From positions 84,477 through 148,476 of the forward strand of contig JBEKEU010000006.1 in the NCBI GenBank assembly GCA_050013675.1: a stretch of 64,000 nt of DNA. The letters are read 5' to 3'. This document shows, piece after piece, positions 37,166-63,661 of this stretch. Every line of letters starts with the position of its first letter. The first letter of the stretch is position 1. The stretch comes from Sedimentisphaerales bacterium. Lineage in GTDB: Bacteria; Planctomycetota; Phycisphaerae; Sedimentisphaerales; Anaerobacaceae. The translations under genes were made by a program, and so were the position numbers. The notes under the pieces were generated by a model, which was not told the origin of the DNA, did not search any database, and saw only the letters and a program-made list of their open reading frames with translations.

Positions 37166-38617
37166 ATGACACAGGCGGATATCGGATTAGTCGGGCTTGC
37201 GGTGATGGGCGAAAACCTGATTTTGAATATGGAAAGCAAGGGGTTCACCGTCGCGTGTTTCAACAGGACGGTTTCGAAGGTCGATGATTTTGTAAACGGG
37301 CGGGCAAAAGGCAAGAAGATAATCGGCTGTCGCTCAATCGGGGAGCTGACTGCGAATCTGAAAAAGCCAAGGAAGGTAATGCTGATGGTAAAGGCGGGAC
37401 AGGCAGTAGATGATTTCATCGAGCAGTTACTGCCTCATCTTGAGAACGGGGACATAATTATCGACGGCGGCAATTCGCATTTCCCGGATACGATTCGCAG
37501 GACCAAATACGTGGAGAGCAAAGGTAAGCTGTATATCGGCACGGGCGTTTCCGGCGGCGAGGAGGGCGCGTTGCGCGGGCCGTCGATTATGCCGGGCGGG
37601 TCGCCGGCGGCCTGGCCGAACGTCAAACCGATATTCCAGGCGATTTGCGCCAAAACGGACAAGGGGGAACCCTGCTGCGAATGGGTCGGCGAAAACGGCG
37701 CGGGGCATTTTGTCAAAATGGTGCATAACGGGATTGAGTACGGCGATATGCAGTTGATATGCGAGACGTATCATTTGATGCGGGAAGGGCTGGGGTTGAG
37801 TAACGCCGAGATGCATAAGGTCCTCGCGGAGTGGAACCAGAGCGAGCTGAACTCATACCTGATTGAGATTACGCGGGATATCCTCGCTTATAAGGACGAG
37901 CAGGGAAACGAGGTAATCGATTTGATTTTGGACACAGCGGGGCAAAAAGGCACGGGCAAATGGACAGTTGTAGCCGCGCTGGATTCGGGTCAGCCCTTGA
38001 CGCTGATAGGCGAGGCGGTATTCGGGCGATGTTTGTCGGCTTTGAAGTACGAACGAGTAAAGGCATCGCAAGTTTTGAAAGGCCCCAAGGCGCAGTTCAA
38101 GGGTGACAAAGCAAGATTCATCGACGATTTGCGAAAGGCGCTATACGCGTCGAAGATTATAAGCTACGCGCAGGGTTATCAGCTTATGCGTGCAGCAGCG
38201 AAGGAATACGGCTGGAACCTAAACTACGGTGGAGTCGCCCTGATGTGGCGTGGCGGGTGCATTATCCGTTCGGTATTTTTGGGCGAGATTAAAAAGGCAT
38301 TCGACAAAAACCCTAACCTCGAAAACCTTTTACTCGACCCGTTCTTCAAACGGGCGATGGCAAAGGCACAGACATCCTGGCGGCGGGTAGTAACAACAGC
38401 GGTCAAACTGGGTATCCCAATTCCGGCAATCAGCGCGGCGATGGCGTTTTACGACGGCTATCGTCACGAGCGGCTGCCAGCGAACCTGCTGCAGGCACAG
38501 CGGGATTATTTTGGCGCGCATACTTACGAGCGGGTTGATAAGCCAAGGGGCGAGTTTTTCCATACCAACTGGACCGGCCGGGGCGGCGATACAAGCTCAT
38601 CCGCATATACTGTGTGA
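37166..38617 (+). CDS. gnd: 6-phosphogluconate dehydrogenase (decarboxylating)
   Basis: 483 aa. GLAVMGENL, GTGVSGGEEGA, HFVKMVHNGIEYGDMQLI, RDYFGAHTYER. Confidence 0.95.
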   Translation: MTQADIGLVGLAVMGENLILNMESKGFTVACFNRTVSKVDDFVNGRAKGKKIIGCRSIGELTANLKKPRKVMLMVKAGQAVDDFIEQLLPHLENGDIIIDGGNSHFPDTIRRTKYVESKGKLYIGTGVSGGEEGALRGPSIMPGGSPAAWPNVKPIFQAICAKTDKGEPCCEWVGENGAGHFVKMVHNGIEYGDMQLICETYHLMREGLGLSNAEMHKVLAEWNQSELNSYLIEITRDILAYKDEQGNEVIDLILDTAGQKGTGKWTVVAALDSGQPLTLIGEAVFGRCLSALKYERVKASQVLKGPKAQFKGDKARFIDDLRKALYASKIISYAQGYQLMRAAAKEYGWNLNYGGVALMWRGGCIIRSVFLGEIKKAFDKNPNLENLLLDPFFKRAMAKAQTSWRRVVTTAVKLGIPIPAISAAMAFYDGYRHERLPANLLQAQRDYFGAHTYERVDKPRGEFFHTNWTGRGGDTSSSAYTV

Positions 38618-50622: not shown

Positions 50623-50809
50623 AAGTCCGTAACTCCTTATAACAATTGACGCTGGGAATATCTTAACAAGTTTTATCTTATGGGGAAATTAAAAGATAAG
50701 GGCGTTAAGATTATCTCTCTTGCCGATTTGGATAAAAAATTCTAACCACGCGGATTACCCCGCCAATTCTATCTTGCAAATATCTCCACATTGCTTACAC
50801 TAATTACCT

Positions 50810-52321
50810 ATGGCTAAGAAACCCGCATCCAATTCAAAGAAACCCCAAACGGCTGCCAAACCCTCCTCGCTCGTCGATACTCGCGTCATTTATTGCGGCG
50901 ATAATCTCGAACAATTGAAAAAACTCCCCGATGAATGTGTTGACCTGATTTATATCGACCCGCCCTTTAACTCAAACCGCAATTATGAGGTCTTCTGGGG
51001 CGAGACAAAGGAAAAACGCGCCTTTGAAGACCGCCACGCCTCAACGCAGGCCTATATCGACTTTATGCGGCCCCGCTGCGTCGAATTGCACCGCGTCCTC
51101 AAGAAAACCGGCTCATTCTACTACCACTGCGACTGGCACGCCTCACACTACGTCAAAATTATGCTCGACCAGATTTTCAGCGAAAACCAGTTCGTTAATG
51201 AAATTGTATGGAAGAGAAGCTCAAATCGCTCTTCAATGAGCAAGATTTTTCGTCGTGCTCACGACAGTATCTTCTTTTATACAAAAAATAGTGATTACCT
51301 TTTCAATATGCAATACAAAGAACTTTCCGAAGGTTCGCTTGAAAACTACAAGCACGAAGATGAAAAAGGAAGATATAGATACGTTCCATTGTTAGTCAGC
51401 GGAAAAAGAAATGGTGAAACAGGAAAGCTGTGGAAAGGTATAGACCCAAATCATTACGGTAAAGCTGGAATGCATTGGGTAACAATTCCTGATAAGCTTG
51501 ATGAATATGATTCAAAAGGTTTAATTTATTGGCCTGAAAAAGGAGGACTCCCAACATTAAAGTATTATTTGGAAGATAATAAAGGCGTTCCGCTATCTGA
51601 TGTTTGGGACGATATAGACCTAATCAGTTCATCTTCTCGTGAATCTTTAGGCTATCCCACACAAAAACCCTTAGCACTTCTTGATAGAATAATTGAGGCT
51701 TCAAGCAATCCAAACGATATTGTCCTCGATGCCTTTTGTGGTTGTGGGACGGCTTTAGTTGCCGCTGAAAATCTCGGCAGGCAGTGGATTGGCATTGATG
51801 TTTCGCCGACTGCCTGCCGTGTTATGGCAAAGCGTCTGCGCGATGTCTGCAAAATGAAAGAGGATGAAACGCTCTGGCGGAATGGTCGGGGCTTCGTTGT
51901 TCGAGACCTGCCCTGGACAATCGAGAAGTTGCGAGAAATCCCGCCGTTTGAGTTTGAGAACTGGGCCGTTATCGCACTGGGTGGCATTCCAAACGTTGCC
52001 AAGGTTGGCGATATGGGTATCGACGGGCGTATCTATCCGGTGTCGGCCACACCGAAAAAAGACAAAGGAGAGCTTGGCTTTATGGATGTTTGGTATCCCA
52101 TTCAGGTCAAGCAGAAAGATAAAGTCGGCAGACCCGATATCGATTCCTTCGAGGCAGTTATGACGCGTGAAGACAGAACAAAGGGGTTCTTTGTTGCCTT
52201 CGACTACTCATCCGATGCTATGAGTGAGATACAGGCGTTCTTCAAAAAGTCCGGCAAAAGCATAATCGCACTTACCGTCAAAGACATCCTCGACGAGCAA
52301 ATCGCCTATAAATTAGCATAA
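50810..52321 (+). CDS. beta-class N6-adenine/N4-cytosine DNA methyltransferase fused to a C-terminal Mrr-like (PD-(D/E)xK) nuclease domain
   Basis: 503 aa. Motif IV IYIDPPFNS lies before motif I DAFCGCGTALVAA (beta order), with YPTQKP. The last ~130 aa carry GDMGIDG ... IQVKQK ... FFVAFDYS, resembling the Mrr_cat core. Confidence 0.85.
   Translation: MAKKPASNSKKPQTAAKPSSLVDTRVIYCGDNLEQLKKLPDECVDLIYIDPPFNSNRNYEVFWGETKEKRAFEDRHASTQAYIDFMRPRCVELHRVLKKTGSFYYHCDWHASHYVKIMLDQIFSENQFVNEIVWKRSSNRSSMSKIFRRAHDSIFFYTKNSDYLFNMQYKELSEGSLENYKHEDEKGRYRYVPLLVSGKRNGETGKLWKGIDPNHYGKAGMHWVTIPDKLDEYDSKGLIYWPEKGGLPTLKYYLEDNKGVPLSDVWDDIDLISSSSRESLGYPTQKPLALLDRIIEASSNPNDIVLDAFCGCGTALVAAENLGRQWIGIDVSPTACRVMAKRLRDVCKMKEDETLWRNGRGFVVRDLPWTIEKLREIPPFEFENWAVIALGGIPNVAKVGDMGIDGRIYPVSATPKKDKGELGFMDVWYPIQVKQKDKVGRPDIDSFEAVMTREDRTKGFFVAFDYSSDAMSEIQAFFKKSGKSIIALTVKDILDEQIAYKLA
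52281..52318 (+). repeat. copy 1 of the 'methyltransferase 3'-end' repeat (functional gene end, ...KDILDEQIAYKLA*)
   Basis: AAGACATCCTCGACGAGCAAATCGCCTATAAATTAGCA. Counted by hand: 31/38 identical to copy 2 and 29/33 identical to copy 3. Confidence 0.9.
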
Positions 52322-52349
52322 GAGCATAAATCTTTAAGGAGAAAGATAT

Positions 52350-52634
52350 ATGACAAGCTCAAAAAAACTTAAAGAAATATTATCTGAGATTGAACAAGCG
52401 CCAATTTCCGCTGGATGTGGTGAGCTTAGTGAAATAATGAAAAAAGCAGGAATACTTACACCTACTGCAGGGATGGATAGCCTAAAAGACAAATGTATCA
52501 GTAGCCTGCATACTGCCATACAAACCGAAAAGATGTTCGAATCGTGTGTTTATGCAAAATGGTCTTGTTTTTGTGCGGCTGTAGCTGCAATTGCATCCTG
52601 CATCAGCGTTCTTTTGTGTTTGTTTCGAGGATAA
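52350..52634 (+). CDS. orphan small tail-anchored Cys-rich protein
   Basis: 94 aa, AT-rich. AAGGAGA RBS 8 nt upstream. C-terminal hydrophobic helix CFCAAVAAIASCISVLLCLF. No known family. Confidence 0.45.
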   Translation: MTSSKKLKEILSEIEQAPISAGCGELSEIMKKAGILTPTAGMDSLKDKCISSLHTAIQTEKMFESCVYAKWSCFCAAVAAIASCISVLLCLFRG

Positions 52635-52667
52635 TAAAATTGAAAAACTTTTATCTCTATAACCACA

Positions 52668-52705
52668 AAGACATCCTCGAATCGCAAATCGCCTACAAAG
52701 TGGCG
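52668..52705 (+). repeat. copy 2 of the 'methyltransferase 3'-end' repeat (relic, still reads ...KDILESQIAYKVA*)
   Basis: AAGACATCCTCGAATCGCAAATCGCCTACAAAGTGGCG followed by TAA. Only ~23 codons are open upstream, so it is a gene-end relic. Confidence 0.85.
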
Positions 52706-52710
52706 TAAAT

Positions 52711-53898
52711 ATGCATGAACTTCCAATCGACAAGAATAAAATAGCAACGCTCTCAAAGAAAGCTAAGCATTACAATATCTTTCCTATTTTCATGCCACGC
52801 TATCTTCCTGATATGAGTCAACCTGAAACGAGTCAACATCCCGTTTCGCAATTATTAGGCGAATTAGTAAAAGATGCTCTTGAGTTTCTTTTAATAGCTA
52901 CAGACAAAGAAGTTGAAGCTTTGCTCGACAGTTTTCCTTCCGGGATAAAAATGCTAGTTGAACATACAAGCGGTCCAAAAGAAGACCGACTAAGAAGAAT
53001 CGCTCTTTATTATATTATCGTAATGGTCGAACGTATTTATTTCTCATTCAAAGACGTAATAAATGAAGATACTAAATCAAGTGTGGTTTTAGAAATATAT
53101 CCTGAACTCAAGAACTCCTTTGATAAAGATGGTTTACTGAGTATCAATGATGATTTTATTTTACATGATGGAGGCATAGAATATAAAAAGCATATGCTCC
53201 ATTATCACCAGTTGCTTCGCAGAGGATTTACCTCGAATCCAAATTTCGATTTTACTGCTCTGTTCCTGCAATATTACCAAAAAACAAAACCAAACAATAG
53301 TTTTAGGGTTGCAATAGACCACCGCCGAATAATGACAAAGGAGTTTTATTCCCAAATTATGGAACTTGATACTTGGTTTGGCCCGGCATTCAATAAGTCC
53401 AAGATAGACGACCCAAACGAAATAGGTCTAACGGTAGTGAAAAGAAACAAGAACTCGTTATTCGAATTGACAAATAGGCTTGATCGCACAGAGTTTTTCT
53501 GGTTTTACCGCGATGGAATAAAAACCTTTGAGGTAGAGGAAATATCAGATCAAGATTACTGTTTCGATAATTACAACTTTAACAGGTATATACATAGTGA
53601 GCGCGATATTGGGAACAAAATCACTCGACACTTAGATGGTGCAGTTAAAGTTTATTTGAAGGATACATACGCTGACAGGAAAAATTCGAATATTCCTAAA
53701 GAAATGAAATGCTATAAAAAAATAAAATTGTGGCGTATAGATGGAGATATCGACCTCGATTCATGGAAAGATCTGATTTCGTTTTTCTACAAGGGCAATG
53801 AAATGATAATTGAATACTTTAATCCAGAAGAATTTAAGCAAATGTTCGAACTTCGAGTCCGTGATTTTGAAGCATGGAAACGTCAGCAAAGAGAGTAA
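52711..53898 (+). CDS. orphan 395-aa protein of unknown function (candidate defence gene)
   Basis: Long uninterrupted ORF in a strongly AT-rich stretch. Starts 2 nt after the relic stop. No motif recognisable by eye. Confidence 0.6.
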   Translation: MHELPIDKNKIATLSKKAKHYNIFPIFMPRYLPDMSQPETSQHPVSQLLGELVKDALEFLLIATDKEVEALLDSFPSGIKMLVEHTSGPKEDRLRRIALYYIIVMVERIYFSFKDVINEDTKSSVVLEIYPELKNSFDKDGLLSINDDFILHDGGIEYKKHMLHYHQLLRRGFTSNPNFDFTALFLQYYQKTKPNNSFRVAIDHRRIMTKEFYSQIMELDTWFGPAFNKSKIDDPNEIGLTVVKRNKNSLFELTNRLDRTEFFWFYRDGIKTFEVEEISDQDYCFDNYNFNRYIHSERDIGNKITRHLDGAVKVYLKDTYADRKNSNIPKEMKCYKKIKLWRIDGDIDLDSWKDLISFFYKGNEMIIEYFNPEEFKQMFELRVRDFEAWKRQQRE

Positions 53899-53955
53899 AT
53901 TTAATTAGGAAATGTAGGATTATTGGAATGCAAAAGGGGGACATTCTGTTTTTTG

Positions 53956-54016
53956 GCGATTCAAAGATAAAACCGGCAGGATAAAAAAGCTTATCGCCAT
54001 AAGGCGATAACGGCAA
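53956..54016 (+). repeat. 61-nt inverted repeat, left copy (contains 8-bp hairpin TTATCGCC-ATAA-GGCGATAA)
   Basis: Reverse complement of 60352-60412 matches at 59/61 positions (hand alignment). Confidence 0.92.
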
Positions 54017-54046
54017 TTCTCTGCGGTAAAAAAGCAGCGTGATTTT

Positions 54047-54092
54047 GCGTTACCTGTCCTGAGCAGTAGTCGAAGGAATCAGCGTCTAAAAA
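54047..54092 (-). repeat. dispersed intergenic element (inverted copy of 57898-57942)
   Basis: GCGTTACCTGTCCTGAGC..TCGAAGGAATC.GCGTC.AAAAA versus the reverse complement of 57898-57942. The 18-nt and 11-nt blocks are identical. Confidence 0.75.
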
Positions 54093-54126
54093 TATCTCTG
54101 CGTTCTCTGCGTCCTCTGCGGTGAAA

Positions 54127-54290
54127 AATCTGCCTGCCCTGCGTAGCCGCTTCGGCGAAGTAGGGTGGTTGTAAATTAGATTGACCAAAGCCGCCTAATC
54201 TGCCTGCCCTGCGACTCGTCCGGCGTAGCGCAAGCGAAGTCGGAAGCCGCTTCGGCGAAGTAGGGTGATTGTAAATTAGATTGACCAAAG
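54127..54290 (+). repeat. tandem direct repeat upstream of the ECF sigma gene
   Basis: The unit AATCTGCCTGCCCTGCG..AGCCGCTTCGGCGAAGTAGGGTG(G/A)TTGTAAATTAGATTGACCAAAG occurs at 54127-54190 and 54197-54290. The second copy carries a 31-nt insertion. Confidence 0.85.
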
Positions 54291-54371
54291 GCATAAAATA
54301 GGTGATTATATAGTGGGCTTTGTTGCGGAGGGGGTCTTGGGGTTGAAGTTTATCTGATAAGGGCCAAACGA

Positions 54372-54971
54372 GTGGCACACAGTCAGCATATAAACGTCGA
54401 AGATACGGTTTTGGTGCAGAAATGGCGTAAGGGCGACCCCAGCGCCATTGAAAAACTCGTCTGCAAATACCAGGGCCGAATCTACAACCTCATATTGAAA
54501 ATCTGCTCAAATCCCAGCGACGCCGCGGAACTAACCCAGGATACGTTTGTCAAAGTAATAGAGAACATTGGTAAGTTCGAGAGCCGCAGCGGCTTTTACA
54601 CCTGGGCGTTCAGAATCGCGGTCAACCTGACGCTGAATTACCGCAAAAGAAAGGCAACGGTCGGGTTTACCTCGCTTGACGCCGAACTGGCTGCGGGCGA
54701 CGAACAGACCAGGCAGGGTCTGGCAGCGATATTATCAGACGATAAGGCCCCTGACCCGGCCCAAATCGCCGAAAACAGGGAACTTTGCGAACTGATACAA
54801 AAAGGAATTCGCAAACTCGATGACGAACACAGAGCAATCATTGTGCTTAGGGATATCGAAGGAATGGATTACGCGCAAATCGCGGAAGTGCTGGGCACAG
54901 AATTGGGCACGGTCAAAAGCCGGCTCAGCAGGGCCCGCGCTGCGTTGAGGCAGATTCTGGAGGCCTTATGA
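54372..54971 (+). CDS. ECF (group IV) RNA polymerase sigma factor
   Basis: 199 aa, GTG start. Region 2 (DAAELTQDTFVKV, FYTWAFRIAVN) and region 4 (DYAQIAEVLGTELGTVKSRLSRAR). Confidence 0.9.
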   Translation: MAHSQHINVEDTVLVQKWRKGDPSAIEKLVCKYQGRIYNLILKICSNPSDAAELTQDTFVKVIENIGKFESRSGFYTWAFRIAVNLTLNYRKRKATVGFTSLDAELAAGDEQTRQGLAAILSDDKAPDPAQIAENRELCELIQKGIRKLDDEHRAIIVLRDIEGMDYAQIAEVLGTELGTVKSRLSRARAALRQILEAL

Positions 54972-55999
54972 ATTTTGAACAAAACCCAAAAATTGAGGAA
55001 TTGCTGAATAGTTACATCGACGACGAGTTGTCGGCTGATGAACGCTCAGAGGTGCAGCGCCTTGTCCGCGAAAACCACACTATCGCACAACGCTTACGCC
55101 AACTCGAAAGATGCAAGGCGATGGTAAGCTCTTTACCCCCCGCCGAACCGCCCGCCCAGGTAGTCGCCGGAATTAAACAACTGCTGCGAAACCATTCGGC
55201 CGGCAAAAGCGAATCTACGCATATCGAAAGCAGGCGAGGAGCAAGGCACCTGTTCGTTCGCCAGGTCATGGCGGCATCAATAATAATTGGGCTTGTGGGC
55301 ATTATGGGCGCAGTAGTGTATAGGATTGTCGGACCAGAGGAAACCGCCATGCCAATCGTCGCGGTGCAGCCGGCACCGACCGTTAAGCCAACTGCGTCGC
55401 CTGTAGCAACGAAACCGGAAGAGACAAAAAAGACGGTTGCCGTCGCCGCTGTTGAGGACGCGACAAGCATAGGCCTGTACTCGCTCCAGTTGCAGACCGC
55501 CGACTTTACCGCGGTTGACGCCTATATAAATAAGCTCCTCGAAGAAAGCCCCTGGCTGCGATACGAAGCGATAAAAGACCAGCCGGGCAAAAGCGCATAC
55601 AGAATTCTTTGCAGCAGAGGCGGCCTTGAGGCAATGATGAGCGATTTGGCGACGGTGTGGCCAAAATTCGATTCGACAACACTGATTGTGCGCACCGATA
55701 ACGTCGGCCAGGATGTCACCGTCGCGTCCGTAAAGCCGGAGCAGGTTGCCGATATTGCCAGACAGGACACAATTGCTAATCGTGTAAAACTTGCGAAGGA
55801 TTTCGCGATGCTAAACAGTGTCGAGCAGATTATGCCCGACGAAAAAATGCTCGCCGCGACGGAGCGGTCGATGCCTGAACTGACAACCATCCCCAAGCCG
55901 GTCCTGACCTCGGGCGATAAAAACGTCGTAACCGCCCCCAAAGGCGCATGGGATCAGGTTCAGGTGGATTTGAATGTCGTCGTCACTGGCCACAAATAG
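54968..55999 (+). CDS. putative anti-sigma factor (single-pass membrane protein)
   Basis: 343 aa. 4-nt overlap with the sigma gene. N-terminal LLNSYIDDELSADERSEV anti-sigma-like helix, and a TM at about residues 95-117. Confidence 0.6.
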   Translation: MNFEQNPKIEELLNSYIDDELSADERSEVQRLVRENHTIAQRLRQLERCKAMVSSLPPAEPPAQVVAGIKQLLRNHSAGKSESTHIESRRGARHLFVRQVMAASIIIGLVGIMGAVVYRIVGPEETAMPIVAVQPAPTVKPTASPVATKPEETKKTVAVAAVEDATSIGLYSLQLQTADFTAVDAYINKLLEESPWLRYEAIKDQPGKSAYRILCSRGGLEAMMSDLATVWPKFDSTTLIVRTDNVGQDVTVASVKPEQVADIARQDTIANRVKLAKDFAMLNSVEQIMPDEKMLAATERSMPELTTIPKPVLTSGDKNVVTAPKGAWDQVQVDLNVVVTGHK

Positions 56000-56206
56000 T
56001 TTAGCCCCCAATCCTGCTTGTCCTCTCGTAGCGAAGCGAAGATCCCCGCATGTCTTTGGCGGGGAGCCAGACCCCTTGGTTTCTTTGTCGGGGGTCATTC
56101 CCGCGACACAAAGCGAAGCGGAGAGCACGGAACGGAAAGCTGGAATCCACAAATAAAAAACCCCCGGATAGCCGGGGGTTCAAACTGCCGTGGGATGTGC
56201 AGTCCG

Positions 56207-57343
56207 TTATTCGAGATTCATTGCCTCAGCGAAGGTAGCCATGTTGTTGGCCCATTTCTGGGCTTCGTTTATGTCGATTTTGTCATCTTTGACTAATCGG
56301 GCAAGGTGTCTTTCCATCGTAATCATCTTCTCATCGTACCTATTCGTGGTCTTGGTCTGGAGTTGCGAATATATCTGCTCGACCTTGCCTGTTCTTATGA
56401 GATTGGCGGTGGCGTAGTTATTGTTAAGAATTTCCATCGCGGCGATTCGACCTTTGCCGTCCTTTCGCGGAATCAGTTTCTGGCTGATGATGTACGCCAG
56501 CCCCAGCGACAGCTGGTTTCGCACCTCGTTTTGCCTGCCGGACGGGAAGTAATCCAGAATGCGCATAATTGTCCCCGCGGTGTCCCTTGTGTGCAGCGTC
56601 GAGAAAACCAAATGCCCCGTCTCAGCCGCCATAAGCGTCATCGCGATTGTCTCCGCGTCGCGCATTTCGCCGACGAGGATTATGTTGGGGTCTTCGCGGA
56701 GCATCGAGCGCAGGCCGTCGATAAACGAATGTACGTCCCTGCCGATTTCTCGCTGCGAGACCAGCGAATGATTCTGCTCAAAAATATATTCAATCGGGTC
56801 TTCGATGGTGATTATCCGGCAGGCGCGTTCTTCGGTTATGCGGTTAATCAGCGATGCGATTGTCGTCGATTTGCCGGCGCCCGTCACACCTGTAACCAGG
56901 ACCAGGCCGTGTTTGCGATTTATAATGTCCTTCCAGATATCATTGGGAAATCCGACCCTCTCCACCGACGGTATATCGGTTGACAGCGCACGAATGGCCG
57001 CGCAGATGCCGTCATTTTCTTTGAAGACGTTGATTCTAAAGTGCGTTGCGGCCAGCCGATATGAGCAATCAACAGTGTGCAGCTCGCGTAATTTGTCTAT
57101 GCTTGCATCCGACAAGAGCGGCAATATTAACTGTTCGGCCATTTCCTGCGTCAACACCGGGCCTTTGAGCTTTTCGATGTCGCCATCGACGCGATAGGCG
57201 GGCGCAGCGCCAACCTTGAGGTGCAGGTCCGAAACCCGCATCGTACCCACCTGCTCAAAATAGTTGAGCATATCCTGGATACTCAACTGCCCCCTATTCT
57301 CGGTGGGATATACGCTTTTTGTGATTTCGCGAACGACCGCCAT
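56207..57343 (-). CDS. pilT: PilT-family type IV pilus retraction ATPase
   Basis: Start trimmed to MAVVREI (57343). Walker A GVTGAGKST, Asp box, Walker B, and GHLVFSTLHT His box. Confidence 0.9.
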   Translation of the reverse strand: MAVVREITKSVYPTENRGQLSIQDMLNYFEQVGTMRVSDLHLKVGAAPAYRVDGDIEKLKGPVLTQEMAEQLILPLLSDASIDKLRELHTVDCSYRLAATHFRINVFKENDGICAAIRALSTDIPSVERVGFPNDIWKDIINRKHGLVLVTGVTGAGKSTTIASLINRITEERACRIITIEDPIEYIFEQNHSLVSQREIGRDVHSFIDGLRSMLREDPNIILVGEMRDAETIAMTLMAAETGHLVFSTLHTRDTAGTIMRILDYFPSGRQNEVRNQLSLGLAYIISQKLIPRKDGKGRIAAMEILNNNYATANLIRTGKVEQIYSQLQTKTTNRYDEKMITMERHLARLVKDDKIDINEAQKWANNMATFAEAMNLE

Positions 57344-57497
57344 TTCCCGCTCCTTGTCAAAAACCATACAAATTATAAGTTCTAAAATCAGGGTTTCAAA
57401 AAGCCATGCACGCACTAATATAGGCAAGGGATGTATCGGCAAAAAATGGGGGTCGGAAAAGCTGAATTTGGCGGTTAGGCGTTGTTTTTTGGGACTG

Positions 57498-57791
57498 TTA
57501 TTTGGCTTTTGCCCCTCGACTCTGCTCGGGACGGGCGAGCCATTCGTTGAGGTTTTTGGCTAAGATTTTGACGTCCTTTTTGGTCATTATGTGGTCGATG
57601 ATTGCGGGCGGTATTTTGAGGTTGACCATCGCTTTTTGCGCACGCTCCCACAGCCGGTCTCGTCTTGCGTCGGTGTCGGCTAAGAACAACTCGCTGACTA
57701 ATTCGCTTAACTTGCCCAGGGCAATGTCGTTGCGGTTGTTGTAGTAGTTCGTTATTATGCTTTTTTGATACGCTGAGTATTCCTGTTTAGC
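57498..57791 (-). CDS. hypothetical protein
   Basis: Start trimmed to MAKQEYSAYQK (57791). 97 aa, helical, no known motif. Confidence 0.45.
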   Translation of the reverse strand, partial: AKQEYSAYQKSIITNYYNNRNDIALGKLSELVSELFLADTDARRDRLWERAQKAMVNLKIPPAIIDHIMTKKDVKILAKNLNEWLARPEQSRGAKAK

Positions 57792-57887
57792 CATATTTGA
57801 GTCCTGCGTTCTGCGTACTTTGCAACTAACTACGAACACTGAACAATGAACTAATTCTGCCTCAAACCGGCGGGAAAATCAAGCCCC

Positions 57888-57942
57888 GGCCAGACGGTTT
57901 TTTTGACGCAGATTCCTTCGACAAGCTCAGGACAGGTAACGC
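57888..57942 (+). repeat. dispersed intergenic element flanking the BrnTA module (downstream side)
   Basis: GGCCAGACGG-T7-GACGCAGATT is repeated directly at 58531-58562. The distal half is an inverted copy of 54047-54092. Confidence 0.8.
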
Positions 57943-57972
57943 GGATTTACGCTGTTTCTTTAAAAGTTTAGA

Positions 57973-58182
57973 TTATGCGACGGTCAGCTTTTTGTGTGAA
58001 TGAGCACACTGACGCAGGTAAAGATTGACTAAGTTTTGATAGGGGATACCGGTCTCTTGTGCCATTTGCTTGAAATACTCAATCACATCGACCCCAAGAC
58101 GCAGCGTAACCTGCTTTTTTAAGGTATTCGCGTAAGGATTTCGCCGGCCTTTAAGTTTTGAAAAATCGTATTCTTTTCTCAT
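57973..58182 (-). CDS. brnA: BrnA-family antitoxin
   Basis: 69 aa. RHH-like VTLRLGVDVIEYFK. 4-nt overlap downstream of brnT. Confidence 0.8.
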   Translation of the reverse strand: MRKEYDFSKLKGRRNPYANTLKKQVTLRLGVDVIEYFKQMAQETGIPYQNLVNLYLRQCAHSHKKLTVA

Positions 58183-58472
58183 AGTTCACCTCTGGCAAAT
58201 TCGCCTTTTTCCTTCGTTGTCGCCTTCCTTGCTGAAATAATCCTGATTTGCCTTCCCTGGCTGTCAAAACAATATGAAACAACCAGCAATCGCAGTCGGC
58301 AGTCAAACCCCAGCATCAGGAACCTGTCTTCATCAGCCGAATGGTCCGGGTCAAAGAACTCTTTGGCATTCTCATCAAAGAATACCGTTGAGGCGTCTTT
58401 GAAGGAAACCCCGTGTTTTTTGAGGTTCTGCGCCGCCTTTCGGTCGTCCCAGGAAAATGTTATCTTTCCCAT
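58179..58472 (-). CDS. brnT: BrnT-family ribonuclease toxin
   Basis: 97 aa. FSWDDRKAAQNLKKHGVSFKDASTVF and IRIISARKATTKE are BrnT (DUF497) signatures. Confidence 0.85.
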   Translation of the reverse strand: MGKITFSWDDRKAAQNLKKHGVSFKDASTVFFDENAKEFFDPDHSADEDRFLMLGFDCRLRLLVVSYCFDSQGRQIRIISARKATTKEKGEFARGEL

Positions 58473-58530
58473 AATTATATTATATTGCTTTCGGCATTAC
58501 GGTTCAAGGAAATTAAAAAAAATCGTCGAT

Positions 58531-58562
58531 GGCCAGACGGTTTTTTGACGCAGATTGCCTCC
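58531..58562 (+). repeat. dispersed intergenic element flanking the BrnTA module (upstream side)
   Basis: GGCCAGACGG-T6-GACGCAGATT, a direct repeat of 57888-57917. Confidence 0.8.
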
Positions 58563-58695
58563 AAACCCTTGCTAATTGCAGGGATTTCGCAATAATTCGA
58601 ATGCAAATGCAATATTATCAGGTTCCCAAGCGTCAGTAGCTGTATTGAAGAAATAAACGGCTTATCATTTTTGGAAATCGCTGATTGCGGAAAGG

Positions 58696-59388
58696 ATGGA
58701 CAATATGAAAATCGATTGCATAAAAAAGACGATGGTAATTTTGGCCGCACTGACTTTTGGTTGTGCCGTAGCTTTTACAGGGTCTGCCCCGGATCCCAAT
58801 TCGCCCGCGCACAGGAATAAAGGTCCGGCTGCACAAAGGCCCGCTCGCGAGTTTTTGCAGGAGCTTAGCGAGAAACTGAATCTCACGGACGCACAGAAGG
58901 CCGCCATCAAACCGATTCTGGCGACCGAGGCCAACGAAATAAAGGCCGTTCACCAGGATAGTTCGCTTTCAACTGAGCAAAAACAAGCGAAAATCAAAGA
59001 AATTCGGGACAGCAGCAGGGAAAAGATAAACGCGCTGCTGACACCCGAGCAGCAGAAAACATTTGCCGAAATGAAGGGTGAAGCGGGCGGCAGAATGCGT
59101 GAAGCATTCCATAACCGGCTGGCTATGATAGCTGAAAAACTGAACCTCACGGACGAACAGAAGACCGCCATCAAACCGATTCTGGCGACCGAGGTCAATG
59201 ATATGACAGCTGTCATGCAGGACAATTCTCTCTCTAAGGAACAAAAGCAAACTAAAATCGCTGGCATTCGGGAGGCCTCAGACACAAAGATAAACGCGCT
59301 GCTGACCCCCGAACAGCAGGCCAAATGGGCCAAACTAAAAGAAAACGCAAAACAGGAGCGTAATAAAAAGGATGCACCGGGCAAATAA
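58696..59388 (+). CDS. periplasmic Spy/CpxP-like (LTxxQ) repeat protein
   Basis: 230 aa. Signal peptide plus two copies of LNLTD.QK.AIKPILATE...QK..KI..IR......KINALLTPEQQ. Start may be ATG at 58705. Confidence 0.6.
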   Translation: MDNMKIDCIKKTMVILAALTFGCAVAFTGSAPDPNSPAHRNKGPAAQRPAREFLQELSEKLNLTDAQKAAIKPILATEANEIKAVHQDSSLSTEQKQAKIKEIRDSSREKINALLTPEQQKTFAEMKGEAGGRMREAFHNRLAMIAEKLNLTDEQKTAIKPILATEVNDMTAVMQDNSLSKEQKQTKIAGIREASDTKINALLTPEQQAKWAKLKENAKQERNKKDAPGK

Positions 59389-59455
59389 GCCCAGTGGCCG
59401 GCAAAAACCTGCTGACAGTTATTACCATACTGTCTGCTGAATACGACATAAAAAA

Positions 59456-59486
59456 GACAGGAGTTGAAAAGCTCCTGTCTTTTTAT
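59456..59486. terminator. bidirectional rho-independent terminator
   Basis: GACAGGAG / CTCCTGTC hairpin flanked by AAAAA and TTTTT, between convergent genes. Confidence 0.65.
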
Positions 59487-59644
59487 TTGTGCGACAAGTG
59501 GCCATGGGGGCAGGATAGCATATAAGTATATGCGTATATACTTATGGAGTGCTCCAACAGTCGAGGTTTTTGAGACACGGATTACCTATTGCGGTAAACA
59601 CTCTTTAGTTTCGCTTACATTACGTCTTCATTGCGGCAGCAGGC

Positions 59645-60040
59645 CTATGCCCACAGGTCTTGTATATCCTCATCGGACTGGAGCCAGTTTGTCGCCTTTT
59701 CAAAATCGGTGAACGCCATAACGGTAAATCTGTCGATATTCGCGCACATCTCCAAAAAAACAGCTTTGTTGAATTGTTCATCATCTCTTGCAATGACGGC
59801 GATCTTACTTCGGAATGCCTCCTTGTGTCGCCCAAGTTCAAGAATCAGCTCATGCAAGTCGGCATGATCCATGTTGCTGTGGACTTCCCGCAAGTCTAAC
59901 AGCAGCTCATGGTCTCCGATTAGATGCTCCATCTTCGCGATTTGACCGAGCACTTTTTTGCTCTCATCAAGGTCTATCTCGCCGGTGGGCTTGGCCTTTA
60001 TGAAATCCTTGGCTTGAATTATCTTATAGTTTACCCGCAT
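59645..60040 (-). CDS. hypothetical protein (possibly STAS-like)
   Basis: Start trimmed to MRVNYKIIQ (60040). The longer track ORF runs through a CACAGAG repeat element. The fold guess is weak. Confidence 0.4.
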   Translation of the reverse strand: MRVNYKIIQAKDFIKAKPTGEIDLDESKKVLGQIAKMEHLIGDHELLLDLREVHSNMDHADLHELILELGRHKEAFRSKIAVIARDDEQFNKAVFLEMCANIDRFTVMAFTDFEKATNWLQSDEDIQDLWA

Positions 60041-60351
60041 TTTCCCGCATCCTGAATAATCCTGCTTTTGTTCCACATATACTCTACTTATGGCACAGGT
60101 TTCCGACGATTTTATCCTGCCATTAAGATAATAGCAATAAGGTGGATTTTTTCGCCACAGAGAACACAGAGAGCACAGGGAATTCATTTTTTTTTAGACG
60201 CCGATTGCGCAGATTCCGCAGAGAATATGTTTAGCCCGGCAACTTTATTGCCGGGTCCCGCCTCCATAACTCAAAACTAAACACTCAACACTCAAAACTA
60301 ACATTTGACACCTCGTTTGTGAAAATCTATAGTGGGTTTGTCAGGAGGATT

Positions 60352-60412
60352 TTGCCGTTATCGCCTTATGGCGATAAGCTTTTTTGACCTGCCGGTTTTA
60401 TCTTTGAATCGC
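60352..60412 (-). repeat. 61-nt inverted repeat, right copy
   Basis: Reverse complement GCGATTCAAAGATAAAACCGGCAGGTCAAAAAAGCTTATCGCCATAAGGCGATAACGGCAA versus 53956-54016: 59/61 identical. Confidence 0.92.
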
Positions 60413-60421
60413 TCCTATGCT

Positions 60422-60910
60422 CTATTTTTGTTTCTGTTTATTGTAATATTTACACACTAAACGATCATAACGATGTATGTAGTCCCTGATATTGTGATAT
60501 TTATTTACAATGACAGCTTTAGCTTCCAGCCGTAACGTCTCATCGTCCGGAACCTGATTGATTTGTTCCAAATTTGCCGCATCTATCCTCCCTCTGAGAA
60601 AGATATTGGCTTTTTGATGCGCTTTAATTTCTACGCCAAATAAATCTATTGCCTTCATAGAAGCACTATGGATATAACCAGTCGCTTCTACTCTATCGAC
60701 CTCGATTGGAAAAGGGTTATTATTTCTAACATCAAGTATAATATTAAACTGCGACTGATACTTATCGCACCAAACTTCCACCGTGCCCTCTTGAGCGGAC
60801 ACAAAAACCTCAATGTTCTTTTTTGTTCTTCCGGGAGAATACAACCAAAAACTAATTATTTTCGGCAAATGAGAGATTAATTTTAATAAGATGTCTATGA
60901 CCCATTCCAT
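60422..60910 (-). CDS. orphan 162-aa protein (N-terminal hydrophobic helix + beta-rich domain)
   Basis: AT-rich ORF immediately downstream of the R-M pair and of repeat copy 3. NNNPFPIEVDRVEATGY loosely resembles LEA_2/WHy-type domains. No firm family. Confidence 0.5.
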   Translation of the reverse strand: MEWVIDILLKLISHLPKIISFWLYSPGRTKKNIEVFVSAQEGTVEVWCDKYQSQFNIILDVRNNNPFPIEVDRVEATGYIHSASMKAIDLFGVEIKAHQKANIFLRGRIDAANLEQINQVPDDETLRLEAKAVIVNKYHNIRDYIHRYDRLVCKYYNKQKQK

Positions 60911-60944
60911 AATTTACTTGCCACAAATAAAATACTAAATTTTG

Positions 60945-60977
60945 TGCCAGTTTGTAGGCAATTTGCTCGTCGAGGAT
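60945..60977 (-). repeat. copy 3 of the 'methyltransferase 3'-end' repeat (relic, inverted orientation)
   Basis: The minus strand reads ATCCTCGACGAGCAAATTGCCTACAAACTGGCA (ILDEQIAYKLA), 29/33 identical to 52286-52318. It overlaps the stop of the endonuclease gene. Confidence 0.85.
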
Positions 60978-61546
60978 TACGAATCGACACCGATAATGAG
61001 AACGGGGATGTCGATGTTTGAAACGCCGCGATGTTCCAAATCCCAAACGAATTGCTCAAAGTATGAAACACCGGTTGACATCTGATCCGCAAACCGCTTC
61101 ACGGGAACTATTTCCACTCCGGCGTCAATGAATCCAAGGTTTTTGAAGATTGTCATCTTGGCACAGACGTTATAGACCATGAAGGCATATTTTCCGAACT
61201 GCACTTCCACACCAAGATTTTCTTTCAAAAAATCCATTTCCCGGAATGCGCCTTTATTGAGCGTTTCCGGCTTATAGCCGGGCCGGTAATACTGTGTGGG
61301 ATACTGGCACGGAACTTTTTGACAGCTCCAGCCCGATGCAAAAAACTTCTCTTTGAATTTTTTATTGAGAGCAACAGGACTAAAAAGACGCCGACCTCGC
61401 ATCGTCTTTTCCTTACTGATTTTCTTCATACAAGCGGAACTGTCAACCTGCCGGATTACTTCATAAACCTCTTTGACTAATTTTGAGTGGTGTTTAGCGA
61501 GATACGCGTTACCCTTATTGAATGAATATTCTCCGGCAATAATCAC
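60977..61546 (-). CDS. putative type II restriction endonuclease, BglII/BstYI-like
   Basis: 189 aa. 4-nt overlap with the upstream methyltransferase. MDFLKENLGVEVQFGK gives D-X8-E-X-Q, the spacing of the BglII catalytic residues (D84, E93, Q95). Confidence 0.6.
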   Translation of the reverse strand: MIIAGEYSFNKGNAYLAKHHSKLVKEVYEVIRQVDSSACMKKISKEKTMRGRRLFSPVALNKKFKEKFFASGWSCQKVPCQYPTQYYRPGYKPETLNKGAFREMDFLKENLGVEVQFGKYAFMVYNVCAKMTIFKNLGFIDAGVEIVPVKRFADQMSTGVSYFEQFVWDLEHRGVSNIDIPVLIIGVDS

Positions 61547-62529
61547 AGAAGGGTTTCCTCCTTATCCCAAATTGCAGGACGCCGGCTTACCTTTTCTCGC
61601 CCTGTTGGCGTAAAAACCGGCTTGCCCAAGGGACGTGTCTTTAACGTTCCTTCAGCCAGCATCTGGAGACGTTTTCGGCATATATCCAGATATTTTTCTT
61701 CGCGGTCGCACCCGACAGCACGCCGATTATGTTTCGCCGCCGCGATGAGGGTTGATCCGACGCCGGCATACGGGTCGTAAATCCAGTCGTCCTCTTTGGT
61801 CAAAGCCAGAACACAACGCTCAACCAATTCCACGGGAAACTGGCAGGGATGGATAGTTTTTTCCGGATGATTCGCTTTGACGTTCGGGATGTCCCATATC
61901 AGACGCTCCCAGTCTTCAGCAACAATCTTCCAAACATCGGAAGGATTCTTGCCTAAAGGATTACCCGAAGGAAATCCTTTTTTGTCACCCTTGAAATGAC
62001 ATTTCCCAGGATACTTGGCGGGCACCCTTACCGGATCTAAGTTAAAAATATAATTATCCGACTTGGTAAACCAAAGGATAGTTTCATACCGACCGGAAAA
62101 ACGCAAACTGCAATGTAATCCATGCTCGAAATGCCAGATAATTCGATTGCGAAGTTGCAATCCCTTCGACTTGAACAAATCATAGAAATAAATATCAAGC
62201 GGAAATACTTCGCCGTTTTCAACGTAGTTGCCCACCTGCCAGCAAATGCTCCCGTCATGCTTTAGGCAACGCGCAAGTTCGCCTATTAATGGTTCCTGTT
62301 GAGCGAGGTATTCCTTCAGCGACGATTTGTGCTCATATTCCTTCCCGATGTTATAGGGAGGCGAGGTAATGATTAGCGAAAAGAAATCTTTTGGAAGAGA
62401 ACTCGCAAAAGCCAAAGCATCATCACAGGCCATCACGAGATTTGCCTCAGGCGTGAATTTATCAGATATTTCAAAGCTGCCGCCAAATAGCGACCTCATC
62501 CGTGAACTGGTTCTATATTCCCTTATCAT
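61543..62529 (-). CDS. beta-class DNA methyltransferase (N4-cytosine/N6-adenine, SPPY type)
   Basis: 328 aa. IITSPPYNIG (motif IV) precedes DPYAGVGSTLIAA (motif I). Confidence 0.88.
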   Translation of the reverse strand: MIREYRTSSRMRSLFGGSFEISDKFTPEANLVMACDDALAFASSLPKDFFSLIITSPPYNIGKEYEHKSSLKEYLAQQEPLIGELARCLKHDGSICWQVGNYVENGEVFPLDIYFYDLFKSKGLQLRNRIIWHFEHGLHCSLRFSGRYETILWFTKSDNYIFNLDPVRVPAKYPGKCHFKGDKKGFPSGNPLGKNPSDVWKIVAEDWERLIWDIPNVKANHPEKTIHPCQFPVELVERCVLALTKEDDWIYDPYAGVGSTLIAAAKHNRRAVGCDREEKYLDICRKRLQMLAEGTLKTRPLGKPVFTPTGREKVSRRPAIWDKEETLL

Positions 62530-63038
62530 AACTGTTAGTTTAAATCATGCTCGATAATTTGCAAGAGAACATTCGTAACTGCAAATCATAGGAAAAGCTT
62601 TTCTAACGAGGCCTGTCCCAGTTTTTAATGTAAAAACAAGGATTATTGCGTTTTTGAGGCCATTTTGGGCCTATTTTTTGCATGTTTTTCAGGCCGACCT
62701 TTCGCTGTAACCTTTTGCGGAATAAGGACATAAAACAGGACTAAAAAAGTCGTATAAAACAACTGTATCAAACATTTGTATGATACATTTGTTCACCAAA
62801 AGCGCGCAAGTGTTTTTTGGCAAATCCGGGAAATTCTGAAAATTTTTTTACTCCTTATACCATAACAAGTTAAGTGCATTTCGAGGCATCCCCAAAATCG
62901 GATTTTTCGTCAAAAGCGCGCAAGTTCGCGCCAATTATAGAGGGACGCGCGAAGCGGGTCGCTTCGCGAGAAAGTAGAAAGTTGAGCAGGAGAACAGGAG
63001 AAAGGGAATTTAAGATTTGAGATTTGAAAGTAACCCAC

Positions 63039-63061
63039 GCAATAAATTGCGGGGCTAAATT
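63039..63061 (+). promoter_or_regulatory. conserved upstream motif CAATAAATTG-GGGGCTAAATT (copy B)
   Basis: GCAATAAATTGCGGGGCTAAATT, 25 nt upstream of the HNH-AP2 start. Matches 37120-37142. Confidence 0.35.
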
Positions 63062-63085
63062 GCAAAGATACGAAGGGAGGATATT

Positions 63086-63661
63086 ATGTCAAGTATCACA
63101 ATCAAAGTTCCAAACTGGTTAGACCGTATTTGCGCGTGGCCGGTGGTGGCTTATCGGCAATTGAAGTTCGGCTACCCATTTCGCAAAATTCCTCTCGGCG
63201 AAGGCAGATTCACCCTTGTTGACCCCGCGCTCTTTTATCGGCTCAATATCTTCCAGTGGTACGCAGATGGAAAGAGCGAGAAAATCTATGCCGTCAGGAA
63301 TATAATATCGGCTAATGAAAATTCAAGAACTATGCGATTACACAGGGAAATTATGAATGTTCCACCAGGCATTTTGGTGGACCATAGAAACGGCGACACA
63401 TTAGACAATAGAAGAACCAATCTGCGTTTGGCAACTTGTTCACAGAATTCCTGTAACAGACAAAAGACAAAATCAAAAACCTCTTCTCGATTTATCGGCG
63501 TTTCTTTTGACAAACACAAGGTCGTGTGGACTGCCTATATCAGTTTTCACAGGAAAAGAATATGGTTAGGGTGTTTCAAAACCGAAATCGCAGCCGCGAA
63601 GGCGCATGATGAGGCGGCGAAAAAGTATCACGATGAGTTCGCCCGGCTCAACTTTGTTTAG
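63086..63661 (+). CDS. HNH endonuclease with AP2/ERF-type DNA-binding domain (homing-endonuclease-like)
   Basis: 191 aa. VDHRNGDTLDNRRTNLRLATCSQNSCN (HNH) followed by SRFIGVSFDKHKVVWTAYISFHRKRIWLGCFKTEIAAAKAHDEAAKKYHDEFARLNF (AP2). GGGAGG RBS. Confidence 0.85.
   Translation: MSSITIKVPNWLDRICAWPVVAYRQLKFGYPFRKIPLGEGRFTLVDPALFYRLNIFQWYADGKSEKIYAVRNIISANENSRTMRLHREIMNVPPGILVDHRNGDTLDNRRTNLRLATCSQNSCNRQKTKSKTSSRFIGVSFDKHKVVWTAYISFHRKRIWLGCFKTEIAAAKAHDEAAKKYHDEFARLNFV

Follow-up and report, generated by a model that had tools for sequence, protein, structure and literature searches.

Restriction-modification (R-M) genes are linked to several classes of genome rearrangement, which include insertion with long target duplication, allelic substitution, and allelic diversity of recognition domains (Furuta, Abe and Kobayashi 2010, PMC2853133). 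Here, we analyzed a region of this kind in a 64,000-nucleotide (nt) stretch of contig JBEKEU010000006.1 (the window), from a Sedimentisphaerales genome (Phycisphaerae, Planctomycetota) from peat. The region (positions 50,810 to 63,661) has a left arm on the plus strand, led by a gene for a methyltransferase-Mrr fusion protein, and a right arm on the minus strand, led by a methyltransferase gene and a nuclease gene, with a core segment between them. Three orphan open reading frames (ORFs) trail these genes: orf94 and orf395 in the left arm and orf162 in the right. We consider it fairly probable that the arms represent two inverted methyltransferase-Mrr loci acting as an exchange slot, that orf395 encodes an independent immunity protein with orf162 and orf94 as trailers, and that a 61-nt repeat found at both arms is a terminator-like element.

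The region is a defense island of a familiar type, and the R-M-linked rearrangements that shaped it are likewise of described types. As in the described classes, cargo lies between direct target duplications of more than 30 nt without a transposase or integrase, one R-M system appears to have replaced another between conserved flanks, and recognition domains appear to be swapped inside a conserved single-chain enzyme. It differs from those classes in that the target of duplication is in every case the 3′ end of a single gene family, that the cargo is often not an R-M gene (orf94, a REP-associated transposase, a 162-amino-acid [aa] ORF), and that the resident promoter is kept exactly in the replacement. 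It shares with defense islands and hot spots the clustering of R-M, toxin-antitoxin, homing-type nuclease, and uncharacterized genes, the AT richness, and a content that varies between relatives, whereas its flanks are the defense gene's own promoter and last codons, not housekeeping genes or prophage arms. A first-pass annotation, made from the letters alone, had described two unrelated R-M modules facing each other. Their contents are indeed unrelated, but both would sit in the same type of locus, as judged by copies of its promoter and tail.

A candidate exchange slot at methyltransferase-Mrr genes

The left arm comprises the following features.

50759-50809, plus strand: methyltransferase-Mrr promoter and short leader, the putative left bracket of the slot (TTGCAA, 17 nt, TACACT, then ATG); aligns with L029, L024, L038, and the right-arm copy
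50810-52321, plus strand: methyltransferase-Mrr fusion, 503 aa (Pfam N6_N4_Mtase 3e-52 and Mrr_cat 3.5e-5; PADLOC MTase_II 5.5e-78)
52279-52321, plus strand: tail copy 1, the functional methyltransferase-Mrr 3′ end; a direct repeat found by pattern search
52350-52634, plus strand: orf94, 94 aa, putative cargo carried, between tail copies 1 and 2, by a mini-cassette of about 390 nt (about 52277-52679)
52666-52708, plus strand: tail copy 2, the probable displaced original 3′ end, 84% identical to copy 1 and 2 nt before the orf395 ATG
52711-53898, plus strand: orf395, 395 aa, member of a large uncharacterized family with a conserved core at about residues 118-370

The resident gene encodes an N6/N4 DNA methyltransferase of the beta class with an Mrr-type PD-QxK nuclease fused at its C terminus (residues 377-476). 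A genome-collection scan returned at least 582 relatives in genome assemblies. The locus comparisons below (L numbers) draw on the best 80 of these, on loci around homologs of the orphan genes, and on related contigs; motif conservation was assessed over 82 sequences, and downstream ORFs were counted over 77 loci. The best 80 are spread over Phycisphaerae, further Planctomycetota, Acidobacteriota, Verrucomicrobiota, and additional groups, with multiple copies in several genomes. By exact sequence, the window proteins belong to a Sedimentisphaerales metagenome-assembled genome. The methyltransferase motifs DPPF and FCGCGT and the nuclease motifs GDxGIDG and QVK are invariant in the 82 family sequences, and mean identity to the window protein is 81% over residues 1-130, 32% over residues 135-280, and 83% over residues 285-503. 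The hypervariable center corresponds to the recognition domain (146 residues, codons about 135-280, 51212-51649), whose GC content is 0.363 versus 0.49-0.50 in the gene's two arms and which falls into 17 multimember clusters at 60% identity. This pattern suggests frequent swapping, in which recognition domains would be exchanged by recombination between the conserved arms of the gene.

The fusion is probably a self-contained single-chain R-M enzyme with an exchangeable recognition domain. Like the type IIC/IIG enzymes MmeI and BpuSI and the Mrr-motif nuclease of LlaGI (PMC2790908), it carries methyltransferase motifs and a PD-(D/Q)xK nuclease in one polypeptide, and, like MmeI and BpuSI, it would take its specificity from a single exchangeable domain. 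Those two enzymes have an N-terminal nuclease and a gamma-class methyltransferase, whereas the fusion is of the beta class (DPPF before FxGxG) with a C-terminal nuclease of the Mrr_cat type. It also differs from type IIC/IIG enzymes and LlaGI in having only about 500 aa, without a helicase or translocase. The closest solved structures in a sequence search of the Protein Data Bank (PDB) are CcrM, MboIIA, and RsrI.

Homology between loci is confined to the interval from about 40-50 nt upstream of the ATG through the stop codon. In hundreds of genomes, the promoter and the N- and C-terminal thirds of the gene are almost unchanged and would provide portable homology; because the conserved gene ends could act in this way, the locus behaves as a slot. 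A co-oriented ORF starts less than 100 nt downstream of the methyltransferase-Mrr stop codon in 35 of the 77 loci, often far more AT rich than the locus and rarely the same gene. The gene directly downstream varies by genome, being orf395, orf162, a GIY-YIG-RAMA nuclease (L028 and L030), or others. The cargo is independent of the recognition-domain type, since the window's type is shared only with L028, whose cargo differs.

The last 36-43 nt of the methyltransferase-Mrr gene, which encode KDILDEQIAYKLA and the stop codon, are present three times, at 52279-52321, at 52666-52708, and, on the minus strand, at 60942-60977; a search of the window with a 27-nt pattern gave three matches versus none expected. 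orf94 is flanked by 43-nt direct repeats without a mobility gene, and the matching uninterrupted alleles are L108 and L109, where just 5 nt separate an intact methyltransferase-Mrr gene from a 395-aa homolog (79-81% identical) and orf94 is absent. The same orf94 cassette with the same tail duplication is found in L035. The stretch of this locus that begins at the first tail and runs to ATCCTCGA in the second is about 97% identical to the window; outside the cassette, its upstream gene body is about 75% identical and its downstream cargo is unrelated (201 aa versus 395 aa). The orf94 cassette would have entered the 3′ end of the gene and duplicated that end, leaving the resident gene intact. 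Tail duplications elsewhere measure 42 nt in L035, 101 nt in L043, and at least 50 nt in L088 (a 63-codon fragment, about 189 nt at the protein level), where the duplication brackets a 162-aa ORF with a C-terminal membrane anchor; in L026, the order is tail, 161-aa gene, tail.

The L043 insertion (L043:9510-10885) lies after the methyltransferase-Mrr gene and carries a 191-aa ORF resembling REP-associated tyrosine transposases, identified by eye, together with REP-like repeats. Its 101-nt duplication of the gene's 3′ end is 99% identical.

Integron-like or otherwise site-specifically recombined cassettes would also account for the cargo genes, and two observations fit such a scheme: the neighbors of orf395 homologs are mostly co-oriented, and the orf94 cassette lies between repeats with both junctions near the same ATCCTCGA stretch. 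Nevertheless, we regard it as extremely improbable. Five co-oriented arrays around orf395 homologs yielded no attC-like repeats, on which ground integron-like arrays were rejected there; the region holds no integrase; and duplication lengths of 36, 43, 57, 77, 84, 101, and about 189 nt argue against a fixed crossover site.

The right arm, listed in ascending coordinates, is read on the minus strand, with a divergent gene beyond it.

60422-60910, minus strand: orf162, 162 aa, predicted N-terminal hydrophobic/amphipathic helix and Ig-like beta-sandwich of the LEA_2 (WHy) type
60942-60977, minus strand: tail copy 3, a putative 36-nt remnant of the methyltransferase-Mrr 3′ end (inverted repeat, 86% complementary; 1 mismatch in the 27-nt pattern)
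60977-61546, minus strand: BstYI-like (BglII-family) putative type II restriction endonuclease, 189 aa (Endonuc-BglII, PF09195, 3.5e-20, residues 12-188; PADLOC REase_II 3e-35)
61543-62529, minus strand: SPPY methyltransferase, 328 aa, N4-cytosine type (N6_N4_Mtase, PF01555, 3e-50; motif ITSPPYN)
62527-62565, minus strand: putative remnant of the methyltransferase-Mrr promoter and leader (TTGCAA, 16 nt, TAAACT), now upstream of the BstYI-like pair
63086-63661, plus strand: HNH-AP2 putative free-standing homing-type endonuclease, 191 aa (Pfam HNH_3 2.4e-8 and AP2 1.2e-8; phrog_99 2e-36), divergent from the slot

The stop codon of the methyltransferase gene overlaps the start of the nuclease gene by 4 nt, and the two genes appear to form a type II R-M system in which the methyltransferase is cognate to the nuclease. 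The nuclease had been called BglII-like, which its Pfam family bears out, but it is much nearer to BstYI (PDB 1sdo, E 8e-33, residues 4-187) than to BglII (E 4e-4). The end-to-end BstYI alignment, the BglII family membership, the SPPY methyltransferase, and the overlapping genes all resemble BstYI/BglII systems, whereas the nuclease is shorter than BstYI (189 aa versus 203 aa) and would be expressed from a borrowed promoter.

We reasoned that the right arm is a former methyltransferase-Mrr locus, because the promoter stands at one end and a tail remnant at the other. The 556-nt noncoding stretch ends in the promoter copy at 62527-62565, which matches the 40 nt before the start codon of the L038 methyltransferase-Mrr gene at 87.5% identity, and the arrangement TTGCAA, 16-17 nt, TA(A/C)ACT is common to the right arm, the left arm, L029, and L024. 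At the other end, tail copy 3 begins at the nuclease stop codon, 31 nt before orf162. The coding sequence thus appears to have been replaced exactly by the BstYI-like pair, beginning at the ATG and ending 36 nt short of the former stop codon. A 5′ coding remnant of the methyltransferase-Mrr gene was looked for in the right arm, and none was found; the promoter alone survives.

Comparison with relatives is consistent with such a replacement. In L193, an intact methyltransferase-Mrr gene is followed directly by a gene of the orf162 family, an arrangement that would be the ancestral state of the right arm. Homologs of orf162 likewise follow the methyltransferase-Mrr tail in L024, L026, and L027, and orf162 appears to be the ancestral downstream neighbor of a methyltransferase-Mrr gene. 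In L024 (about 80% nucleotide identity), 5′ and 3′ methyltransferase-Mrr stubs flank an unrelated 322-aa gene, then a 161-aa gene, which has the appearance of a parallel replacement event. A related contig carries the same block of HNH-AP2, methyltransferase, and nuclease genes with a 160-aa gene, the last being 77% identical. Cassette exchange, which the first-pass annotation had proposed as a repeated process, is well supported by these comparisons, in that both exact replacement of a coding sequence and the tail-bracketed mini-cassette appear to recur in other genomes.

The HNH-AP2 protein appears to be a free-standing homing-type endonuclease. Its gene is divergent from the methyltransferase-Mrr gene in L038, as in the right arm, and HNH-AP2 genes lie at most 1.7 kb from methyltransferase-Mrr genes in 4 of the 80 loci (L029:7195-7776, L038:5591-6292, L043:6383-7249, and L066:7030-7758) and within 8 kb in two more (L033 and L034). 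One metagenome-assembled genome (fen_1362) has such a gene beside all three of its methyltransferase-Mrr copies, while none was found in 83 loci around orf395 homologs. The HNH-AP2 protein may stimulate exchange at the methyltransferase-Mrr locus.

The spacer between ilvN and ilvC in related genomes is a variable hot spot (L024:6093-9560, L188:3479-6794, and L190:254-3569). It contains either a gutted methyltransferase-Mrr gene with the 322-aa gene and an orf162 homolog or, in the opposite orientation, a 236/247-aa gene with an orf94 homolog.

Six-frame ORF lists and domain scans (Pfam and PADLOC) reproduced the earlier ORF map of both arms, with the HNH-AP2 gene, at its coordinates. The AT richness of the arms was likewise borne out by a GC profile, with values of 0.405 (left arm) and 0.428 (right arm) versus 0.496 (core) and 0.513 (first 50 kb of the window). 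The lowest values belong to orf395 (0.355), the methyltransferase recognition domain (0.363), orf162 (0.364), and orf94 (0.393), so that the three orphans are the AT-richest genes (0.355-0.393).

The orphan genes

A word-indexed search with orf395 gave 235 homologs with E ≤ 0.001 (about 50-60% identity) from several phyla, including Nostoc, Microcystis, Poribacteria, Acidobacteria, and Arcobacteraceae, and a full profile search extended the family to 1144 clusters at 50% identity. No match was found in Pfam, PADLOC-DB 2.0, NCBIfam, or PHROGs, and a profile search of the PDB was empty. The AlphaFold2 model (predicted local distance difference test [pLDDT] 89.4, predicted template modeling score [pTM] 0.85) is helical in its N-terminal part and has a core rich in beta structure, and Foldseek found no match with E ≤ 0.001 in PDB or BFVD, known nuclease folds included.

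DNA methyltransferases are the commonest genomic neighbors of the family, and clustering of 228 ORFs near orf395 homologs gave only one recurrent family, the N6_N4 methyltransferase with or without Mrr. A Pfam census of the neighbors counted methyltransferases of the N6_N4 (7), Eco57I/N6_Mtase (3), and D12 (1) types, about 10 transposases/integrases, 2 antitoxins, 2 SNase proteins, and many housekeeping genes. One homolog (P0202) is a fusion in which a ThsB-like TIR domain (PADLOC ThsB1 6.5e-50; Pfam TIR_2 2.4e-17) precedes a 395 domain that matches the window protein at 35% identity (E 4e-68). The family is thereby comparable to Thoeris ThsB-type TIR proteins through the N terminus of P0202, whereas orf395 of the window has no TIR domain.

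Two further groups of proteins were seen near or within this family. A subgroup of about 690 aa (P0290, P0293, P0294, P0297, P0302, P0305, and P0308) has a different N terminus and a C-terminal extension of about 300 aa, and the extensions have no match in Pfam or PADLOC. Two loci (L108:4355-5272 and L110:9237-10112) have, after the 395-aa homolog, a homologous protein about 300 aa long whose C-terminal domain is of the staphylococcal-nuclease (SNase) type.

orf395 or its homologs lie directly downstream of methyltransferase-Mrr genes of three recognition-domain types and also follow relatives that are only 34% identical (L166 and L168), and the identity profile of orf395 shows no hypervariable block of the recognition-domain kind. 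The gene does not covary with the methyltransferase recognition domain. A specificity-matched nuclease of the methyltransferase was a candidate role for orf395 and was rejected on the three recognition-domain types, the occurrence of the same type with many downstream genes, and the lack of a hypervariable block of its own. Most likely, orf395 has a new fold and rides this and other variable loci independently of the specificity of the neighboring enzyme. Its most likely function is that of an independent single-gene immunity protein, to which we give about an even chance.

orf162 has a Pfam match to LEA_2 (PF03168, 1.2e-3) with 19.8 bits versus the curated cutoff of 25.4. Its model has a pLDDT of only 68, and the fold matches Af_0446 (3but, 1.7e-5), the luminal domain of TMEM106B (8b7d, 2.6e-5), and LEA14 (1yyc, 7.6e-4). 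It shares with these LEA_2/WHy proteins the predicted beta-sandwich and an NPxP-type motif after the N-terminal helix, and it is unlike them in its subthreshold Pfam score, its narrow family (16 clusters with an invariant NNNPFPIEIDR-type motif), and its link to the end of the methyltransferase-Mrr gene. Apart from the LEA_2 match, searches of Pfam, PADLOC, NCBIfam, and PHROGs with orf162 were empty. The orf94 family (29 clusters, 50-98% identical, nearly all 94 aa) has no match in these four libraries; orf94 carries a Cys-rich transmembrane anchor at its C terminus (hydropathy 2.6 at residues 74-92). No catalytic signature was recognized in either protein. Homologs of orf94 also occur after a Shedu-type nuclease gene (L191 and L192) and after the 236-aa protein in the ilvN-ilvC hot spot. 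We suggest that orf162 and orf94 are cotranscribed trailers, which may encode membrane accessory or effector proteins of upstream nuclease-type genes.

The unannotated 236/247-aa protein encoded upstream of orf94 homologs (L188:4204-4947 and L190:1012-1722) contains KVRCNLFHGTK, an Rx4H motif spotted by eye, and has no match in Pfam or PADLOC. Rx4H motifs are of the kind found in HEPN RNases.

A closer bond with the upstream genes can be imagined, in which the orphans are functional partners of the R-M modules, orf395 acting as the real or second nuclease, or an effector, with methyltransferase-Mrr and orf162 and orf94 as nuclease-triggered membrane effectors. The co-oriented genes are tightly spaced (orf395 2-5 nt after the tail, orf94 after a gap of 29 nt, and orf162 after one of about 65 nt), the pair of methyltransferase-Mrr and 395 genes is repeated in L108, L109, L166, and L168, and the 395 homologs of L114, L142, L163, and L181 have other DNA methyltransferases nearby. 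Moreover, methyltransferase-Mrr is paired with a 162-family gene in L193, and orf94 also trails the Shedu-type nuclease gene (L191) and the gene for the Rx4H protein of 236 aa. Against such a partnership, 395 and 162 homologs are absent from all of the 80 closest methyltransferase-Mrr loci, and orf94 is present in a single one; orf395 occurs with three recognition-domain types while showing no hypervariable block itself; the majority of 395 homologs have no methyltransferase nearby; orf162 persists after replacement of the methyltransferase-Mrr gene (in the window and in L024); and the nuclease motif of the fusion is invariant, so that no separate nuclease is needed. We therefore consider functional partnership unlikely.

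The orphans could also be unrelated to immunity, with orf162 and orf94 as small envelope or stress proteins and orf395 as a metabolic enzyme that merely accumulate at a recombination-prone spot. The predicted LEA_2/WHy fold of orf162 is noncatalytic, the orf94 and orf162 families are also found between ilvN and ilvC in relatives, many neighbors of 395 homologs are housekeeping genes, and PADLOC gave no match for any of the three. Yet a TIR domain is fused to one 395 homolog, and methyltransferases, transposases, and toxin-antitoxin genes recur among the neighbors. The strong AT skew and patchy cross-phylum distribution are typical of mobile defense genes, and the ilvN-ilvC site is itself a variable hot spot with a gutted methyltransferase-Mrr gene. 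On this evidence, a role entirely outside immunity appears doubtful.

The preferred reading remains that of an independent immunity protein with two trailers, in which a defense role is plausible for orf395 and weak for orf94 and orf162. The first-pass annotation had singled out the three orphans as the best candidates for an undescribed defense system, and profile and PADLOC searches of the kind that it had proposed assigned no family to them except the subthreshold LEA_2 match of orf162. Its suggestion is indirectly supported for orf395 by the TIR fusion, the methyltransferase neighbors, the position directly downstream of methyltransferase-Mrr genes in several lineages, and the lack of a library or fold match, and is weak for orf94 and orf162, which lack a catalytic signature. 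The three do not make up one system, as each is also found apart from the other two and with no R-M partner.

Intergenic repeats, core segment, and surroundings

Two copies of an intergenic repeat border the core.

53932-54016 (61-nt core 53956-54016), plus strand: repeat copy 1; on the minus strand, an 8-bp hairpin that contains GC and leads into a T-run (-20.2 kcal/mol, z -3.2)
60352-60412, minus strand: repeat copy 2, inverted relative to copy 1; a terminator-like hairpin on the plus strand (-20 kcal/mol, z -2.5)

The arms of this inverted repeat (53956-54016 and 60352-60412) are 97% complementary, with none expected in 100 shuffles, and the hairpin and T-run are read on the strand facing outward from the core. 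The claim that the repeat closes both arms was correct, but it is not exclusive to them. A third copy (L011:3789-3880), with a longer, interrupted hairpin, lies about 3 kb beyond the right end of the window, just past the 3′ end of a 1036-aa gene without a Pfam match. BLAST also found the left half of the repeat in L033, L034, L027 (where the match extends to 83 nt), and L029, in the last case beyond a convergent unrelated gene. As a specific module boundary, the repeat is weakened by the third copy behind the 1036-aa gene and the partial copy in L029. It appears instead to be a terminator-like intergenic element specific to the lineage rather than a working recombination site, and would merely happen to close both cargo regions.

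The inverted repeats were also considered as a DNA inversion switch that flips the core or swaps cargo between two promoters, as in shufflon-like or phase-variable R-M loci. The 61-nt inverted repeat (97% complementary) around 6.3 kb and the 36-nt inverted tail repeat around 8.6 kb would be suitable for such a switch. Still, no recombinase gene was found in or beside the region among annotated ORFs and Pfam matches, and the 61-nt repeat has extra, terminator-like copies elsewhere. All of the 17 independent metagenome contigs with orf395 or orf162, which come from several samples and several of which span a repeat, are collinear with the window, and core inversion was rejected because no variant orientation was found among them. 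An inversion switch is thus very unlikely, and we retain the terminator-like reading of the repeat.

The core contains the following features.

54017-60351, no strand: core segment, about genome-average GC
54372-54971, core: ECF sigma factor (precomputed Pfam matches on identical contigs)
54968-55999, core: ORF read as an anti-sigma factor, no Pfam match on record
56207-57442, minus strand: PilT-like ATPase (precomputed Pfam matches)
57973-58472, minus strand: BrnA/BrnT (precomputed Pfam matches)
58696-59388, core: LTXXQ protein (faint Pfam match)
59645-60187, minus strand: STAS-like 180-aa ORF

Pfam agreed with the earlier reading of the core as to the ECF sigma factor, the PilT-type ATPase, BrnT/BrnA, and, faintly, the LTXXQ protein, while the ORF taken for an anti-sigma factor had no match. 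An Rfam scan of the window found two distant tRNAs and nothing else.

Several repeats were noticed within the core. Between the 61-nt repeat and the sigma-factor gene (54017-54371) lie dense short repeats, including a 46-nt unit that occurs twice at 100-nt spacing (54145-54190 and 54245-54290, 98%); motifs of the CTCTGCG type are also present near 60150-60230 and in L034 and L035. A second inverted repeat of 38 nt (54027-54064 and 57925-57962, 84%) has its left copy adjoining the 61-nt repeat and its right copy between a 113-aa ORF and brnA. The gene for the LTXXQ-like periplasmic protein (58696-59388) contains an internal 264-nt tandem duplication (58870-59009 and 59134-59273), the halves of which are 78-80% identical. 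Outside the region, L191:1-717 and positions 37877-38593 of the window carry a 76% identical gene, and L191 is the contig with the Shedu-like gene and the orf94 homolog, which suggests that the 37.9-kb site of the window is another variable spot in this lineage.

A number of observations weigh against the interpretation given here. With duplications that range from 36 to about 189 nt and no evident recombinase, we assign no mechanism of insertion, which could be homologous, illegitimate, or endonuclease stimulated; on the same grounds, the fit is with insertion with long target duplication and allelic substitution, not site-specific recombination. Because neither an empty site nor a donor allele for this species was recovered, we infer the direction of each event, and since the genome-collection scan returned no genome sharing the flanks, we set no island borders or empty site. 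No characterized enzyme with the domain order of the fusion was found in a PDB sequence search or in a review. About 85% of the loci of the 395 family have no nearby DNA methyltransferase, with many housekeeping genes among their neighbors, and the TIR fusion comes from one sequence on one contig (P0202 is a singleton). None of 2.9 million viral contigs encodes a relative of the 395 family, which is neutral for a defense role. Finally, the partial 61-nt copies in L033 and L034 sit 1.4-1.5 kb downstream of methyltransferase-Mrr genes, and the repeat is possibly a right-hand homology anchor.

Implications for the lineage and the 395 family

Taken further, the data tentatively suggest that the 395 family may be a stand-alone anti-phage protein with a new fold, serving as a sensor/effector, and that a slot made of promoter and tail may exchange defense genes, recognition domains, and membrane trailers in soil and peat Planctomycetota, Acidobacteriota, and Verrucomicrobiota, perhaps stimulated by HNH-AP2 endonucleases. 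Current understanding is not overturned by these findings. They provide a base-level example, from an uncultured member of the Planctomycetota, of conserved ends of a defense gene that would serve as homology arms for swapping other defense genes. The 395 family, which numbers over 1000 clusters and combines a confident model with the lack of a fold neighbor, is a concrete candidate for defense testing, and if the methyltransferase-Mrr fusion cleaves DNA, it would represent an unrecognized and very widespread family of single-chain restriction enzymes with many specificities.

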